Below are positions 18,534 through 57,549 of a stretch of DNA of 64,000 nt, one piece after another. This DNA comes from Squalus acanthias (lineage: Eukaryota): assembly GCA_030390025.1 (NCBI GenBank), contig CM059431.1, positions 122,018,001 to 122,082,000 on the forward strand, read 5' to 3'. Position numbers and translations under genes: made by a program. Each line of letters starts with the position of its first letter. The first letter of the stretch is position 1. The notes below the pieces were generated by a model. The model was not told the DNA's origin and ran no database searches. It saw nothing but the letters and a program-made list of their open reading frames with translations.

Positions 18534-18690
18534 CCTTGCTACTTTATAACAGTACTCAGGCCTTTGTATGTCAGGTTCCACCCTCCTCTAGCAACCTTCA
18601 AATGATGCGGAGATGCCGGTGTTGGACTGGGGTGGACAAAAGTGAGAAGTCACACAACACCAGGTTATAGTCCAACAGTTTTATTTGAAA

Positions 18691-18728
18691 TCACAAGCTT
18701 TCGGAGCTGCTGCCCCTTCGTCAGGTGA
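18691..18728 (-). ncRNA. Minimal hammerhead ribozyme motif (inverted-arm copy)
   Basis: Reverse complement reads tcac-CTGACGA-a-ggggc(agca)gctcc-GAAA-gc-TT-gtga. Confidence 0.78.
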
Positions 18729-18795
18729 AGTGAAGGAATACGAATCGGCAAAGCATATATAGACTATATGCTGTGCCGATTTGTATTTCTTCACT

Positions 18796-18833
18796 TCACC
18801 TGACGAAGGAGCAGCCGCTCCGAAAGCTTGTGA
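18796..18833 (+). ncRNA. Minimal type I hammerhead ribozyme motif
   Basis: tcac-CTGACGA-a-ggagc(agcc)gctcc-GAAA-gc-TT-gtga: intact core boxes, helix I tcac/gtga, 5-bp helix II, palindromic loopless helix III (AAGCTT). Confidence 0.8.
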
Positions 18834-20009
18834 TTTCAAATAAAACTGTTGGACTATAACCTGGTGTTGTGCGACTTCTCAACCTTCAAATGAGTTGAGT
18901 GCAAGGCTGCTTTAAATATCGGTGCTGGAAACGAGTCATCGATGATGTCATCAGATCCGCTCCATTTAATAGGGCTGGGAAAAGCGCAGGAGTCTTTCAA
19001 TTGGGGCCATTAAGTTAAAGTCGCTCTGAACAATGCGTTGCTCAGAACATCTTGTTCCCGACCCACTACGCGGTCCGCACGCCCAAGACCTGACTCCAAG
19101 GTAAAATTCCAGCCCAACTTTTTGACAAGAGTCAATGGAGCAACATAGGGAGGGAAATTACTATTGGCAGTAATAACCAATGAATGCTTAACACATTCAA
19201 ATGGCTTTCCTCTATCTGTTATTTTAATAGAGGGCACTAACCCATTTATTTTAAATAGGTTTACCCCTCTGTTAAAATTGCAGACAGTGGAATGCTATAC
19301 GAGCTTGTTAAGAATTCATCAGCTATCATCACCAACAGCTACATGTGTTAAAAAATGACACGGCTGGTTGATCAATATCTAAAAGTGGAAAAAACAAGTG
19401 ACCTTTGGGTGTGACCTTTCATCAGAAACCCTGTTCTGTTTGAGTAGTATTGACTCACAGCTATCTGTCATGAATCTGTTTAAGAATAAATGTTGTTTAT
19501 TTGCAATAGTTAAATTAGCATACCTTCAATTCATGTAATCCTGCGCCTGGCTGTGGGCTGCTGTGGGATTGGGGGACTGGAACAGATGTGGGACTGAGCC
19601 AACTTAGTTTTGTGCATGTAGAATGCATTGTTGCTAGGGATTATGTAAGTGTGTGTGGTAATAGATTTCAGTTCGTAAATGAATATGATGGATCGGGAGT
19701 CAAATTTCTTGAAGGATGCGTGACTGGAGGTGATGTTGTATTGAAGCCCATACCACTTATTTTATTTTCTATATAAAATATCTGTAAATCTGAAAATTCA
19801 GGAGAAATACATTTTGGTTTGACAGGCTGAATTACAGTAGGCTCTAAAATATTAGAAAATGCACCAAATAAAGTCTTCTTCCAAAAAGTGATGGACTGAT
19901 TGGTTTACCTGCAGCTGAGATAGTGGTCGACTGTATCCCATTGCACTTTCAATCTAACTGCTCCTCTTCACGTCTCAAAAGACCCATATTTATATTCGTT
20001 ACCTTTTTT

Positions 20010-29003: not shown

Positions 29004-29516
29004 TTACTCGCTGCAGTTTGTTTTGAAGCCTATTGAACTGGGCATATTTGGGGAGGTGCCCTTCTATAACATACTAGAGAGCCCTCCTTCCCCTTATTTC
29101 AGGAATGAGCACTTCCAGTGGCTGGTCATCAAAATGGGTCGTATTAACTTTTCACGCCTGTATTTTTCAGGAATTCTGCTGTGTAGACCTTTAGCTTGCT
29201 TTCCCCTGCACAAATGCTGGAGTTTAAGAGCCTTCTTAAGCCATTTAACTGCTGCTGTGCCTATAAATCAGTCCGAATGCTTCATTGGTTAGCCCACAGG
29301 CACTACCTCACATCATTTACTCCTGCAGCTGAAAACACCAATTGTGGAGATTAATGGTCAAGAAAAAAATTCTCACAGAAGTTTTCAGCAACCCTCATTT
29401 AACCCTTGACATGCACATCAATAGCAATCTATAGACTATAGTCAGTGTAGCTGATATTTCTGGTACAGCAACAAGTCGTTCTTCATTCCTGAGGAATCTT
29501 GAACAGATGAGAGATC

Positions 29517-29600
29517 ATCAGTTCTGACGAAAGGTAAATCGCCCTGAAACGTTGACTCTGTTTCTCTCTCCACAGATGCTGCCTGACCTGCTGAGCATGT
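29517..29600 (+). mobile_element. Degenerate Penelope pLTR end fragment with hammerhead-like motif
   Basis: cagttCTGACGAaaggtaaatcgccctGAAACGTTgactctgtttctctctccacagatgctgcctgacctgctgag is homologous to 55064-55140. Confidence 0.75.
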
Positions 29601-29893
29601 TGAGAGGTACATGCTTGATCATTTGAACTTGTTGGTAGAACCTCAAATCCATCTTCAGTGATGACACAAATCAGCAGCTGTGAGAATTTAGTTATGTGAT
29701 GTGTGCAACATGGGGTCACCAAGAAGTAATAATTAATAATGGCATGGCCAAGAAATATCATCACTGTTTCCTTGAGCATCTTACTCTTGCTACAATCGTA
29801 AAACTGAGAGAACAGGTAACTTTCTTGTTCCTAATTTGAACTTCCTCGTGCCAAGTCTGATATATATTTCAAAATATTTTTGCTTATAATAAT

Positions 29894-30790
29894 GTCCCAG
29901 ATTTTGCGGTAATAATAACAGTGAGGTTATCAGTGCTCGCCATTATTATGGGGTAAATCGGACAGCAACTTCTGGTGTTCGCACATGTGCAGTTAAATGC
30001 GGAAATCCGGGAGTTGCTATCTGAAGTACCCTGCTCCTCCACAGGGTGCGCTGTTGCAGTCCTCGCCCATAGACTCAGCATTGAAGTGTCAGCAATAGTA
30101 TGAACTTGCTGTACCTGCTCACTAGTTTCGCACTAAAAACGGCTGAAAAAGTTAGGGCTGGTGCATTCAGGAGCAAGTGGGGGTGAAATTTGACATGGGC
30201 GGGAACGCAAAGCGGGTGGAATCGCATCTGACACCCGTTATATGTCCCGTCCAATATTCCGTTCCATTGATTTCAATAGAACTTAATATCGGGCAGGGCG
30301 TATAACGGGCGACAGATGCGATACTGCCCGTTTTGCATCACTGTCCAAGTCGAATTTCACCCCCAGTGAGTTTTTAATGCCGTGATAAGTGATAATTACT
30401 GCTGAACAATCTCCCTGGCCCTGAAAATTTAGTTTTACTAATGTGAGGTCTCATTCCCTCAGAAGAAAACCAGTGTTGGGGATTTTTAAAAAATTCAAAT
30501 AACTTTTTTTTACTTTTTCTGTCTGTCTCTTTTATCTCTCTCCCTTAATCCCATTTGTATTTCCCAATCTTTATTTGTTTTCTTACATTATTTAAATCTA
30601 ATTTATATTTCTTGCTTTATACTTCCTGGTTGAGGCTCTGCTTGTCTCAGTGAAGATTCTTCAATTTGATTGGTTGAAGAGCCTCATGCTCACAGATGCC
30701 ACAGATCCCCTGTAGGGGGCGTCGCGCTGGACCAGACGCCGGATTAGAGCAAGTCTGTGCTCTAAAGACAGCTGACTGCAAAATCTGGAC
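29894..30790. mobile_element. Non-autonomous DNA transposon with a nested palindromic MITE (30179-30364)
   Basis: Outer ccagattttgc...gcaaaatctgg inverted termini. Inner gggggtgaaattt...aatttcaccccc with a central ccattgatttcaatag palindrome. Confidence 0.7.
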
Positions 30791-38303: not shown

Positions 38304-38433
38304 ATGATGTGGAGATGCCGGTGTTGGACTGGGATGGACAAATGTGAGAAGTCGCACAACACCAGGTTATAGTCCAACAGCTTTATTTGAAATCATAAGC
38401 TTGCGGAGCTGCTGCTCCTTCATCAGGTGAAGT
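38304..38433 (-). mobile_element. Single-arm copy of the 18606-18880 Penelope-derived family; hammerhead core mutated (GAAA to GCAA)
   Basis: Closely matches 18602-18732. Inserted in an old CR1 fragment (38150-38570) with imperfect catggg..cat flanks. Confidence 0.85.
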
Positions 38434-53180: not shown

Positions 53181-53337
53181 TGCTCTAAACTAACAGATGG
53201 CTCAATAAACTTTTGAGATAACTCTTATTGTAATTAATACGATAGCAAAATACTGCAGATGCTGGAAATCCGAAATAACAACAGAAAACGCTGGAAAAAC
53301 TCAGCAGGCCAGGCAGCATCCGTGGAGAGAGAAAGAG

Positions 53338-53374
53338 AGTTGACGTTTCAGGTCGATGACCTTTCATCAGAACT
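53338..53374 (-). ncRNA. Hammerhead ribozyme motif, inverted-arm copy
   Basis: Exact reverse complement of 55064-55100. Confidence 0.82.
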
Positions 53375-53542
53375 GGGAAGAGCTGGAAATCAAATAGATT
53401 TAAGGCCAGGGTAAAGCTGGGAAAAGGGGGAGGGGATAAAGGAACAAAGGAGGAGATGAAGAGACATTAAGAGACATTAAGAGATATGCAAGGCTAGAGG
53501 TGGTGTTAATGTGACAGATTAAGGCTGAATGAAGTGTGAAAT

Positions 53543-54787
53543 GAACTTGTTCTCACATTGAACAACTTCTCCTTTGACTCTACCCATTTCCTCCAAATTA
53601 AAGGTGTTGCTATGGGTACCCGCATGGGTCCTAGCTATGCCTGCCTTTTCGTGGGATATGTGGAACACTCTTTGTTCCAGTCCTACTCGGGTCCCCTCCC
53701 TCACCTCTTTTTCCGGTACATTGATGACTGTATCGGTGCCGTCTCCTGCTCTCGCCCTGAACTAGAACATTTCATTCACTATGCTTCCAATTTCCACCCT
53801 TCCCTCACCTTCACATGGTCCATCTCCGACTCTTCTCTTCCCTTCCTCGACTTCTCCATCTCCATCTCTGGGGATAGGTTATTGACTAACATTCACTACA
53901 AGCCCACCGACTCCCACAGCTACCTGGACTACACTTCCTCCCACCCCGCCTCCTGTAAGGACTCTATTCCATTCTCCCAGTTTCTCCGTCTCCGCCGCAT
54001 CTGCTCTGATGATGCCACCTTCCATACCAGTGCTTCCGACATGTCTTCCTTTTTCCTCAACCGAGGATTCCCCTCTACCGTGGTCGACACGGCCCTCGAC
54101 CGTGTCCGTTCTATCTCCCGCACATCTGCCCTCACCCCTGCCCCTCCCTCCCGGAACCACGATAGGGTTCCCCTTGTCCTCACCTTTCACCCCACCAGCC
54201 TCCACATTCAACGGATCATCCTCCGCCATTTCCGCCACCTCCAGCGTGATCCCACCACCAAACACATCTTCCCCTCACCTCCCCTTTCAGCATTCCGCAG
54301 GGACCGCTCCCTCCGCGACACCCTAGTCCACTCCTCTACCACCCCCAGCACCCCTTCCCCTTCGCCCGGCACCTTCCCGTGCACGCGCAGGAGATGCAAC
54401 ACATGCCCTTATACCTCCCCTCTTCCCACTGTCCAGGGCCCCAAACACCCCTTCCAGGTGAAACAGCGATTTACTTGTACTTCCTGCAATTTAGTATACT
54501 GTATTCGCTGCTCACGATGTGGACTCCTCTACATTGGGGAGACCAAACGCAGATTGGGTGACCGCTTTGCGGAACACCTCCGTTCAGTCCGTAAGGGGGA
54601 CCCCGAGCTCCCGGTGGCCTGTCACTTTAATTCACCGCTTCACTCCCACTCTGACCTCACCGTCCTCGGCCTAATACACTGTTCCACGGAAGCTCAGCGT
54701 AAGCTCGAGGAACAGCACCTCATCTTTCGTTTAGGCACGCTACAGCCCTCTGGACTCAATATCGAGTTCAACAATTTTAGATCATAA
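53543..54787 (+). CDS. Penelope ORF C-terminal part: RT palm/thumb + GIY-YIG endonuclease (no true start codon; truncated)
   Basis: QIKGVAMGTRMGPSYA, RYIDD, LPFLD, YKPTD, CxRxRCxxC linker, LVYCIRC..LLYIGETKRRLGDRFAEH, GLN. The frame is uninterrupted from the inversion junction to TAA at 54787. Confidence 0.93.
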   Translation, partial: ELVLTLNNFSFDSTHFLQIKGVAMGTRMGPSYACLFVGYVEHSLFQSYSGPLPHLFFRYIDDCIGAVSCSRPELEHFIHYASNFHPSLTFTWSISDSSLPFLDFSISISGDRLLTNIHYKPTDSHSYLDYTSSHPASCKDSIPFSQFLRLRRICSDDATFHTSASDMSSFFLNRGFPSTVVDTALDRVRSISRTSALTPAPPSRNHDRVPLVLTFHPTSLHIQRIILRHFRHLQRDPTTKHIFPSPPLSAFRRDRSLRDTLVHSSTTPSTPSPSPGTFPCTRRRCNTCPYTSPLPTVQGPKHPFQVKQRFTCTSCNLVYCIRCSRCGLLYIGETKRRLGDRFAEHLRSVRKGDPELPVACHFNSPLHSHSDLTVLGLIHCSTEAQRKLEEQHLIFRLGTLQPSGLNIEFNNFRS

Positions 54788-55063
54788 CCTCAGCTCCAAT
54801 CACATTTATATTTTATTTTATCCACCCTTTTATTTGTCCCCCCCACCTTTTTTTTCCTCCTAGAAGCTGGCAGCTGTCCTTCATTCTGCCAGTAGATTTC
54901 ACACTTCATTCAGCCTTAATCTGTCACATTAACACCACCTCTAGCCTTGCATATCTCTTAATGTCTCTTAATGTCTCTTCATCTCCTCCTTTGTTCCTTT
55001 ATCCCCTCCCCCTTTTCCCAGCTTTACCCTGGCCTTAAATCTATTTGATTTCCAGCTCTTCCC

Positions 55064-55100
55064 AGTTCTGATGAAAGGTCATCGACCTGAAACGTCAACT
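55064..55100 (+). ncRNA. Minimal type I hammerhead ribozyme motif in the Penelope 3' region
   Basis: agtt-CTGATGA-a-aggtc(atc)gacct-GAAA-cg-TC-aact: intact core, GUC cleavage triplet, helix I agtt/aact. Confidence 0.82.
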
Positions 55101-55751
55101 CTCTTTCTCTCTCCACGGATGCTGCCTGGCCTGCTGAGTTTTTCCAGCGTTTTCTGTTGTTATTTCTTATTGTAATTAAGTTGTGTTTATACTTAGGCAG
55201 TATCTCCTTACTCTTCCGTGTCTTACACGGGATCTTAATTTCCTGAGGTAATAAAAAATTAATTGAACTGTGACTTTAGCATACATTATCCATACATGTA
55301 TCCTGGTGTTATTTATCAAACAGGTCCAATAGTGCCTGCTTATAAATTGGACATTATTCTGTCCTCTTCAAAAAATAAATTTTTGCTACACAATATTTAC
55401 TTTACTGGGAGAGGGCAGCACAGACCTGGGGAATGTTCTGTGCCATTCTGAACATAAGGTTAAGAAAAGCTATTTTGATTGAAAGGTATTCAAAGGCGAT
55501 GCAGTGTGATATTTATGATATTTATTGATAATTGGGATGTATAAACGAATTTGCAGTTCTGTTTCACCTTTAATGTCCTCAGGACATCCCAAAGCACTTG
55601 GACACTTTATAGCCAATAAATTACTTTTGAAGTGTAGTCCTTGTACCTTTTCAGACAAACGTGGCAGCCAATTTGTGTGCAGTAAAGTCCCACAGACAAT
55701 AATGAGATGAATAAACAGTTAACCTGTTTTGGGTGGTAGTTGAGAAGTAAA

Positions 55752-57549
55752 GGGGAAACATTTGTGTTCGCCAGCTAAGTTGCCGGTGTCACAGCAACTA
55801 CAATTAACGGCCGCTGGAAATGGCCACAACGCTAACTGACTGAAATTGGTCTGGGGGGCATGGAGATAGGTGGTGCAGTGTTCACCTGCCATGCAACACC
55901 GCCCTGATTCGGTGTTGCAGCTTCCCACAGCCTCTGTGAGCGAAGCTGTGGCACTCACAAGGAATTATGGGTAATGAAGAGGTCTGAGAATTAAGGGGGC
56001 CATGCACGCTGAAGCAATGCAAAACAAAATGCAGTGAATCAATACATTTTTCAGCCCTTTCTGCCTTTTAAGAAATATGCAATATTTAAATGTGAATATT
56101 CAGCTGTTAAAGCTGAATTACCTTCCTAAACTCAAGGAATGGGAAAACTGCCTCAGCACTAACACAAATGGCTCAGCAAGCCAGCGAAGGGGAACTGAGG
56201 GTCTCATACGCAGCACTCCAGTTTTGTGCAGAGGGTCAACACTGCAAGAGCGGCCCTCTACCCAGAGGGGCCAGGAGGCCCTCCAGAAACAATGATGTGG
56301 GAGTACATCACTAATGCCGTCACTGCCAACAGTGTCACCCCCACCACTTGGTTCCAGTGCCCAAAGAAGCTTCATGACCTCTGACCACTAGTCAAGGTCA
56401 GACAATGCATCTTCAAAAGCCGTCTCCTACCAACTGCACCACTAGCTTCACACACTGCTCAATGCATAACCCCCAATCACTCATCTACCAACAAACTGCA
56501 CCAATGACAAGGCACATCTCCCATTCCTAGCCTCACCTCACCCCTTTGGAGGAGACAGTGCAGGCCATTCTTGGCAGGGGCATGGTTTAGTCCTTAGCCA
56601 GTGGTGAGGCTGAAAGGATACAAGATGCTAGTATCCTCGTACATTATCCTCCTTCTGGCATGCACCTCTTGATTTCCTGCCCTCCCATCAGCACAACTCC
56701 ATCCTTGTGCCTTCCCCATTTCACACACCCAAGAAATGCAGCCTGCCCAGCCAGTGGGTCAACAAGAAGAGGCAGCCTGCCCAGCCAGTGGGACCACAGG
56801 CTGATGATTCCATCCTAGGTATCCCGGACACAAAGGGGCTGTCTGGGATGCATCCTTCCATCTAATTCCTCCTCTTCGGCTTCCTCCTCTTCTGTGTCTT
56901 CCTCTTCCCTCTGTAAGCGAATGCTGTAAATGTGAATTGACAGCATAAAATGCTGGAAATACTCAGTTGGTCAGGCAACATGTTGACCTGAGACGTGAAC
57001 TCTGTTTTTCTCTCCACGGATGTTGCGTGACCTGCTGAATATTCGCAGCATGTTCTGTCTTCTCAAAGGCTTTCATTTACCATCCGAGCCCTTGCAAGCA
57101 TCCAGCAGCACTCCCGACACACTTAAAAAACTTTTCACCTCTATTGCAGCAAGCCACCACTTCAATAAAATCATAAAAAAGTCCAAATCATTCAATTCAA
57201 ACTTACCTGAATGATGTGTGTGTCCCTTTAAGAGCTGCAGACATCGCCACTGTCAGACACTGTCAGCCTGCTTGCACGGCAGGTTAACCTGCGTGCTTAG
57301 GACCCAGCGCTGAATTCAGTGCTAGGGTCGAAGGTCGGGTTGGTGACGTTAAGTCGACATTACATGCTGATTGACGTCACCACGCCTTTTTTTTTCCAGG
57401 GTGCTGCCCGTTACCGGCAGCACAAAGGGGGAGCGGAATATGGCGGCCGGTGTGGGTCCCACCACTAGCTGGCGAAAGAGTGGCTGCCGCCATTTTAATG
57501 CCATTTCATGACGTTACGGAGTGGCAATAAGTATATGAATTTCTAGCCC
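55752..57549 (+). mobile_element. Defective Harbinger element with Myb/SANT remnant (~56168-56400) and a nested mini Penelope fold-back (56941-57060)
   Basis: ggggaaacattt...aatttctagccc termini and a TWFQCPKKLHDL-like peptide. 56941-57060 matches the ends of the 53-55 kb arms in both orientations. Confidence 0.7.

Follow-up and report, generated by a model that had tools for sequence, protein, structure and literature searches.

In a 64,000-nt stretch of Squalus acanthias DNA (the window), positions 18592–18893 hold a short insertion related to Penelope-like elements (PLEs), built of two inverted arms with a tail on one side. Its features are listed below in window coordinates, with a dot where no strand is assigned.

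18592..18605 (.): left TSD, maximum 14 bp, the last 4 bases overlapping the element end (direct-repeat comparison; family TSD mode 12 bp)
18602..18642 (−): PLE tail, about 40 nt up to and including the start codon of the parent ORF; on the left arm only
18643..18764 (−): left, tail-bearing arm, corresponding to the parent pLTR and extending to family position 163
18691..18728 (−): putative minimal type I hammerhead motif, variant GGGGC-AGCA-GCUCC, predicted cut after 18695, CUU triplet
18731 (−): Inr-like +1, the A of TCACTTC, family position 130, with an excess of copy ends
18754..18761 (−): TATA-box match TATATATG, starting 30 nt upstream of +1; turn point of the hairpin
18765..18881 (+): right, inverted, tail-less arm, family positions 158 to 42
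18796..18833 (+): putative minimal type I hammerhead motif, variant GGAGC-AGCC-GCUCC
18880..18893 (.): right TSD, the first 2 bases overlapping the arm end (direct-repeat comparison)

Anatomy and putative hammerheads of the insertion

The inverted arms (18643–18759 and 18765–18881) measure 117 nt each, are 95% complementary, with six differences between them, and are separated by a spacer of 5 nt. The longest direct repeat flanking the unit is 14 bp, with copies at 18592 and 18880. Its final 4 bases double as the start of the element end common to the family copies, and its initial 2 as the end of the right arm; since the repeat overlaps the element ends at both sides, the TSD is truly about 10–14 bp. 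The tail (37–41 nt) is one-sided and was found left of the arms only. An earlier note on this DNA had recognised the two inverted arms, the single tail and the TSD, and this layout stands, while the arm spacing of about one base and the TSD of 13–14 bp given there have to be replaced by the values above. Sequence matching an older dispersed repeat flanks the unit on both sides, roughly collinear in copies L002 and L013, so the unit is an insertion. The insertion is young; the left arm is 100% identical over 157 nt to another genomic copy, which argues for little decay since insertion. In the left arm the TATA match (no other TATAWAWR occurs across 470 nt of 3′ sequence of the parent), the Inr, the hammerhead motif and the tail are all intact; the right arm retains the Inr, at 18793, with the TATA clipped. 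Neither Pfam searches of three ORFs near the unit nor a Harbinger-like tblastn search gave a match.

Both arms read CUGACGA-A-5-bp stem II-GAAAGCUU-GUGA, with a stem I of 4 bp. The characters of minimal type I hammerheads (core, extra base, palindromic stem III, short stem I) are present in each arm, as an extra A after position 9, G10.1-C11.1, a palindromic AGCU and a 4-bp helix I. As judged from the sequence, the hammerhead core is intact in each arm, as the earlier note had stated. The extra base between 9 and 10.1, G10.1-C11.1, the palindromic 15.2-16.2 and the 4-bp helix I are the same in the minimal hammerheads of PLEs described by Cervera and De la Pena (2014, PMC4209133), whereas helix II, given there as 7–8 bp, has 5 bp here, and the CUU triplet differs. 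Among the fetched loci, the core is intact in 95 of 101 whole motifs and CUU is the predicted cleavage triplet in 95 of 101 (tally without L005, L049 and L027, a duplicate of L026). CUU is a slow hammerhead cleavage triplet, and the activity of the family's hammerheads may therefore be low. Rfam found no hammerhead in the unit at E ≤ 1; matches to MIR821 and MIR399 were rejected as generic miRNA-hairpin models under the gathering score.

The two motifs lie on opposite strands and face outward from the hairpin centre. Read-through RNA from either side would therefore contain one sense hammerhead, in the 3′ arm and duplexed. RNA folding predicts a single long hairpin for the whole unit (−213.8 kcal/mol, z −27; 0 of 200 shuffles equally stable), as against about −12 to −13 kcal/mol for a free hammerhead motif, and the sense hammerhead in read-through RNA is predicted to be buried in a duplex with its complement. 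A cofold of two motif copies gave predicted pairing via stem II, not stem III. The earlier claim that a transcript of either strand contains a ribozyme and can fold into a long dsRNA hairpin thus holds for the hairpin and for one sense motif, but this motif, in the 3′ arm, would be paired to its complement. The term double hammerhead was overstated, as no transcript carries two sense hammerheads. Pairs of hammerheads on opposite strands, 100–700 bp apart, are described for Schistosoma (PMC4209133). We propose that the hammerhead is a passenger carried in from the pLTR.

The parent family and its copies in the window

The arm represents the pLTR, at the 3′ end of a coding PLE, and copies continue inward from the tail into common sequence. 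At locus L005 the arm adjoins an open frame of 405 aa, in which RT motifs (YTRYIDDIF) are accompanied by a CX4CxxC linker and a motif of GIY-YIG type. CHGNLCKTC and YLIRCRKGC..WYIGET in this frame provide a CX2-5CxxC linker and two Cys in the GIY-YIG core. The RVT_1 match of the frame in Pfam (E 1.2e-4) is below the cut-off, and Pfam on the EN part alone gave no GIY-YIG match; among the atlas neighbours of the frame, GIY-YIG is present in 16–32% and RVT_1 in 10–23% of members. A single ORF with RT followed by a C-terminal GIY-YIG, as in endonuclease-positive (EN+) PLEs, is thus present in L005, with weak Pfam support. L074, which is L005 extended, is a 3.1-kb pLTR-ORF-pLTR copy with frameshifts; it bears the arm at both ends (95.6% alike), that is, a pLTR-flanked ORF together with the hammerhead motif, and an ATG at L074:1009 corresponds to arm positions 1–3, the tip of the tail. 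An intact parent ORF was not seen, the sole full-length copy examined (L074) being frameshifted, and a PDB search with a fragment of the parent protein returned 0 matches. The CX2-5CxxC linker upstream of GIY-YIG and the two core Cys are described as defining the Neptune and Nematis clades (PMC8557442). On this definition, its linker groups the parent, an EN+ PLE, with Neptune/Nematis. The earlier note had considered an extremely truncated Penelope insertion and had recommended a search for a PLE ORF adjoining the arm; L005 and L074 provide this ORF and trace the arm to a coding element with RT and GIY-YIG.

Copies were searched in the 3.7-Gb genome, where the arm has many copies of 97–100% identity. 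Exact-match counts gave at least 10,098 tailed ends genome-wide, 2,613 RT 18-mers of the parent, 86 junctions of pLTR and ORF start, 4,371 matches to the TATA region and 103,940 matches to arm positions 62–77, the last probably including sister subfamilies. At G000:C19:16456601-16457175, nine head-to-tail matches to the pLTR-ORF-start junction with a spacing of 68 bp form a satellite-like array of the parent start region.

The window holds further PLE copies:

38304..38433 (−): solo 130-nt copy of the arm family, from the tail to exactly +1, without inverted arm
53223..55179 (+): copy of another PLE family, identical in layout, TSD 15 bp
53267..53547, 53540..54787 and 54891..55171 (+): tail plus inverted arm, ORF fragment and arm of the 53–55 kb PLE

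The copy at 38304–38433 had been taken as proof of dispersal. It is indeed 93% identical to the arm over 130 nt, but its hammerhead core is broken, GAAA reading GCAA, and its flanking repeat is only 6 bp. Its tail extends 4 nt into the ORF start. We agree with the earlier note that the PLE at 53–55 kb is not the partner of the unit: it gave no blastn match, and its amino-acid identity to the L005 parent frame is 31% over 405 aa. It has a weak GIY-YIG match in Pfam. Decayed pLTR fragments of the 53–55 kb family were seen at 29489–29614 and 56985–57058, the first retaining a hammerhead core at 29524. An imperfect hairpin at 30163–30380 (108-nt arms, 74% complementary) is unrelated to the arm.

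Turn points and ends of the family copies

In 62 of 71 loci the tailed arm starts at position 1–2. Inverted arms end at 29–61, mostly at 35–42, with a tail of their own in 1 of 50, and the TSD (mode 12 bp) commonly extends 0–5 nt into the inverted arm. An inverted, 5′-truncated copy with a tail at one end and a TSD of variable length was thus found for the family. In EN+ PLEs as described by Arkhipova et al. (2013, PMC3846280) and Craig et al. (2021, PMC8557442), a 5′-truncated copy and an adjacent inverted copy likewise occur with a one-sided tail, a TSD and a junction palindrome; the 30–40-bp tail at one end and an inverted copy about 37 bp shorter are the same. The TSD is given there as 8–10 bp, in contrast to 10–14 bp in the 18592–18893 unit, which is cut back to the pLTR alone. 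This unit accordingly conforms to the described architecture, as a truncated PLE insertion. We found no literature on such hairpins in cartilaginous fish or on copy ends accumulating at an Inr.

Of 39 loci compared, 18 have an inverted arm that exceeds the tailed arm in length and 9 have one that falls short of it; plain fold-back of a tailed cDNA is therefore ruled out for many loci. In 7 of the 15 long copies the two arms differ by no more than 15 nt in length (shuffle mean 1.07, p 5e-5; arm-end table without L027 and L001). The same loop-II variant is present in both arms of 30 of 38 pairs (shuffle mean 12; tally without L027 and L074), and 8 of 38 are discordant, for which a binomial p of 1e-6 is overstated, as several bases make up the variant and the change in L056 is private. 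Arm discordance at position 51 was set aside because of CpG decay and selection by the query. In L001, L036 and L038, the 18592–18893 locus included, the arms differ at two linked non-CpG family sites, implying that the arms of the 18592–18893 unit were probably copied from two templates of differing family variants. The two pLTRs of L074 bear different variants, so one tandem RNA could supply both arm variants. Both concordance and discordance of arms can also stem from later gene conversion. Junctions were found at self-complementary patches, namely AAGCTT, stem II and TATATA.

The earlier note had alternatively proposed a discrete SINE- or retrozyme-like family. Turn points across the family copies vary from about 60 to more than 900 nt. 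In 28 other best matches (without L027, the duplicate of L026) the tailed arms end anywhere from 172 to more than 1,661 nt, and in 15 an inverted piece lies directly next to the tailed arm. The first 30 tailed ends on contig C1 represent 29 independent loci, L047/L049 being a segmental duplicate; an inverted arm adjoins 24 of the 30, and 23 are complete units of 129–527 bp; none of the 54 arm 5′ ends in this sample lies at 150–170, the turn zone of the 18592–18893 unit. At least 13 other hairpins turn within 30 nt of its centre, a lower bound because the pattern demands exact matches. Each has its own TSD (8–14 bp) and its own right end, and 0 of 13 share the junction of our unit; the nearest, L037, has a junction 2 nt different and another right-arm variant. 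Among these hairpins the junction 163/165 recurs three times and 163/171 twice, and since the three 163/165 copies carry different arm variants, a hot spot for turning is indicated. Of the 23 complete hairpins in the C1 sample, only one pair, L053/L054 (G000:C1:2938470 and 3041735, 100 kb apart), has a common junction. It contains an 8-nt insert and is flipped relative to the tail; the two loci have a rare SNP in common and are 98.75% identical over 320 bp, with differing TSDs and flanks. To account for this pair, either a hairpin RNA was copied again or gene conversion took place. L035/L042 are possibly another propagated junction pair. Hairpin junctions are thus occasionally copied. Many copies with one fixed junction and fixed boundaries, as in a SINE-like family, were not found in these two sets of 13 and 23 hairpins. 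Variable turn points, the coding RT-EN parent and the lack of a sibling junction among the 13 close-turn hairpins together argue against a discrete protein-free family, and that proposal is abandoned. The 18592–18893 unit is an extreme truncation in the published inverted-copy-plus-tail pattern, most likely a one-off, and minimal hairpins with both copies cut back to the pLTR are the family's commonest product.

Non-LTR retrozymes (Li, Clavereau and Pollet 2026, bioRxiv 10.64898/2026.07.22.740005) are, as described, likewise non-coding, with a type I hammerhead and PLE pLTR ancestry. They form head-to-tail tandems with at least 2 same-strand hammerheads, whereas our unit is head-to-head with one hammerhead per strand, and retrozyme identity was rejected on this ground.

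Counting exact matches genome-wide by their reach gave 28,034 to position 129, 24,947 to 130, 19,467 to 131 and 18,675 to 132, corresponding to drops of 11.0% at 129–130, 22.0% at 130–131 and 4.1% at 131–132. The drop at 130 had been predicted from the Inr match ahead of counting. In the C1 sample, positions 122–130 account for 21 of the 54 arm 5′ ends, and the copy at 38304–38433 ends exactly at 130. This position is the A of the Inr match, with the start of TATAWAWR 30 nt upstream; both assignments follow the general consensus motifs for Inr and TATA. The pLTR of Adineta Pen2a is described with the same TATATATA and TCACT Inr (PMC3846280), and D. virilis Penelope with a TATA-less internal promoter (PMC2377424).

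We lean slightly towards the view that short copies are run-off cDNA from an mRNA leader of about 130 nt, with RT starting internally at the ATG. The drop at 130/131 could be due in part to sister subfamilies with other upstream sequence, or in part to stalling of the RT at the hammerhead base. Hammerhead cleavage as the main source of short copies was rejected, since only 1 of 54 arm 5′ ends (L064, at 94) lies at the cut site 93–94. Of 20 ORF-linked 5′ pLTRs, 12 stop before position 122 and 2 of the remaining 8 end at 130–133; for ordinary arms the figure is 21 of 37 (Fisher p 0.13), and the leader reading is not confirmed by these ends. The 5′ pLTR of L075 stops at position 50. Eight of the 20 ORF-linked 5′ ends (L075-L094) lie at 15–58, in or near the tail, two of them looking like duplicates; the ORF of D. 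virilis Penelope is reportedly flanked by 34-bp direct repeats, which these ends resemble. A spliced leader via CAG in the tail was dropped, as 0 of 20 ORF-linked ends lie at position 25. Most short family copies end at or inside +1, and the 18592–18893 locus is in the minority class: both of its arms reach about 30 nt past the predicted +1 and were therefore probably copied from the 3′ pLTR of a read-through RNA.

Proposed formation of the insertion

We consider the 18592–18893 unit to be one insertion of a coding EN+ PLE whose two cDNAs each ended after about 160 nt, and give this reading a probability of roughly 0.86. The head-to-head layout with one tail and a TSD of about 12 bp is the usual product of the family. 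From the biochemistry of PAc, a Poseidon-type PLE of Anolis carolinensis (Frangieh et al. 2024, PMC11167929), and from the copy structures we infer that the RT-GIY-YIG protein would make staggered cuts about 12 bp apart, and that both target 3′ ends would prime reverse transcription. One cDNA would be primed at the tip of the tail (ATG to +6), and the other 35–42 nt further in, aided by 0–5 nt of microhomology. Both would be extended on one RNA, or on sibling RNAs, up to a shared stop, and would be joined head to head at a self-complementary patch, which for our unit would be the TATATA box, with two family variants as likely templates. The correlated arm lengths and common variants indicate that the two cDNAs usually derive from the same or sibling RNAs. 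For PAc, cutting and extension of both target strands are described, the hammerhead is reported as dispensable for insertion, and the tail arises via two internal RT start sites near the pLTR-ORF junction. These lie 111–118 nt into the ORF, whereas the parent family ends at ATG to +6, and PAc as described is without the CX2-5CxxC linker that the parent family has (PMC11167929). How inverted and tailed PLE insertions form is called still undefined by Craig et al. (PMC8557442).

Self-priming fold-back, as proposed in PMC3846280, would have a single cDNA fold at the TATATA palindrome and copy itself, the six arm differences arising later. The junction within a palindrome fits this, as do the turns of other copies at AAGCTT, stem II and TATA palindromes, the correlated arm lengths and the same variant in most arm pairs. 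However, two of the six differences belong to a linked pair of non-CpG family variants that is also found in L038, the identity of the left arm to another copy over 157 nt leaves little room for decay, and in 18 of 39 loci the tail-less arm has sequence absent from the tailed arm; we regard fold-back as unlikely for our unit. Still less probable is secondary mobilisation, in which hairpin inserts are transcribed, by read-through or from TATA-Inr, and re-copied in trans by the parent RT-EN, so that the locus would be the offspring or source of a small non-autonomous lineage. The common junction and rare SNP of L053/L054 with their differing TSDs and flanks, the recurrence of junctions among the 13 close-turn hairpins, the intact TATA, Inr, hammerhead motif and tail of the left arm, and the in-trans mobilisation through pLTRs described for Adineta (PMC3846280) are all consistent with it. 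The lack of a sibling junction among the 13, with even L037 being 2 nt off and of a different right-arm variant, speaks against it, as do the differing arm variants of the three 163/165 copies, and the flipped common junction is equally explained by ectopic gene conversion between neighbouring hairpins. Our unit is also without the first 172 nt of the ORF, which the PAc template is reported to need (PMC11167929), if this rule is transferable. Co-option by the host, as a source of dsRNA and siRNA or as a bidirectional ribozyme-trimmed promoter, is very improbable: the predicted 117-bp duplex and the intact left TATA-Inr would suit such a role, but the insert is young, lies inside an older dispersed repeat and resembles thousands of other copies, and no conservation was shown. 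The two-cDNA insertion is retained as the preferred reading, and the locus was most likely dead on arrival.

A broader proposal, which we consider doubtful, is that promoter-retaining hairpins act as secondary source genes, giving from TATA-Inr a hammerhead leader of about 130 nt, or a junction-bearing read-through RNA, that would be primed from both target ends by a dimeric PLE protein. If true, some of the short hammerhead copies, which number in the tens of thousands, would constitute a lineage that is non-autonomous and moves in trans, and the combination of inverted arm and tail would be the trace of two cDNAs, sometimes from two different RNAs. The 18592–18893 locus itself is minor, one among thousands of truncated PLE ends. 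The family statistics (the Inr end, the correlation of arm lengths, the longer tail-less arms and the mixed-variant pairs) give testable predictions for PLE insertion, and may explain the abundance of solo minimal hammerheads in genomes.

Two further observations concern individual copies. L012, L053 and L063 have a near-identical 12-bp TSD, apparently from one site in another common repeat, which suggests a target preference via AT-richness and microhomology. L016 bears a tail at both ends and combines a short inverted arm with a longer pLTR running into the N-terminal part of the ORF.
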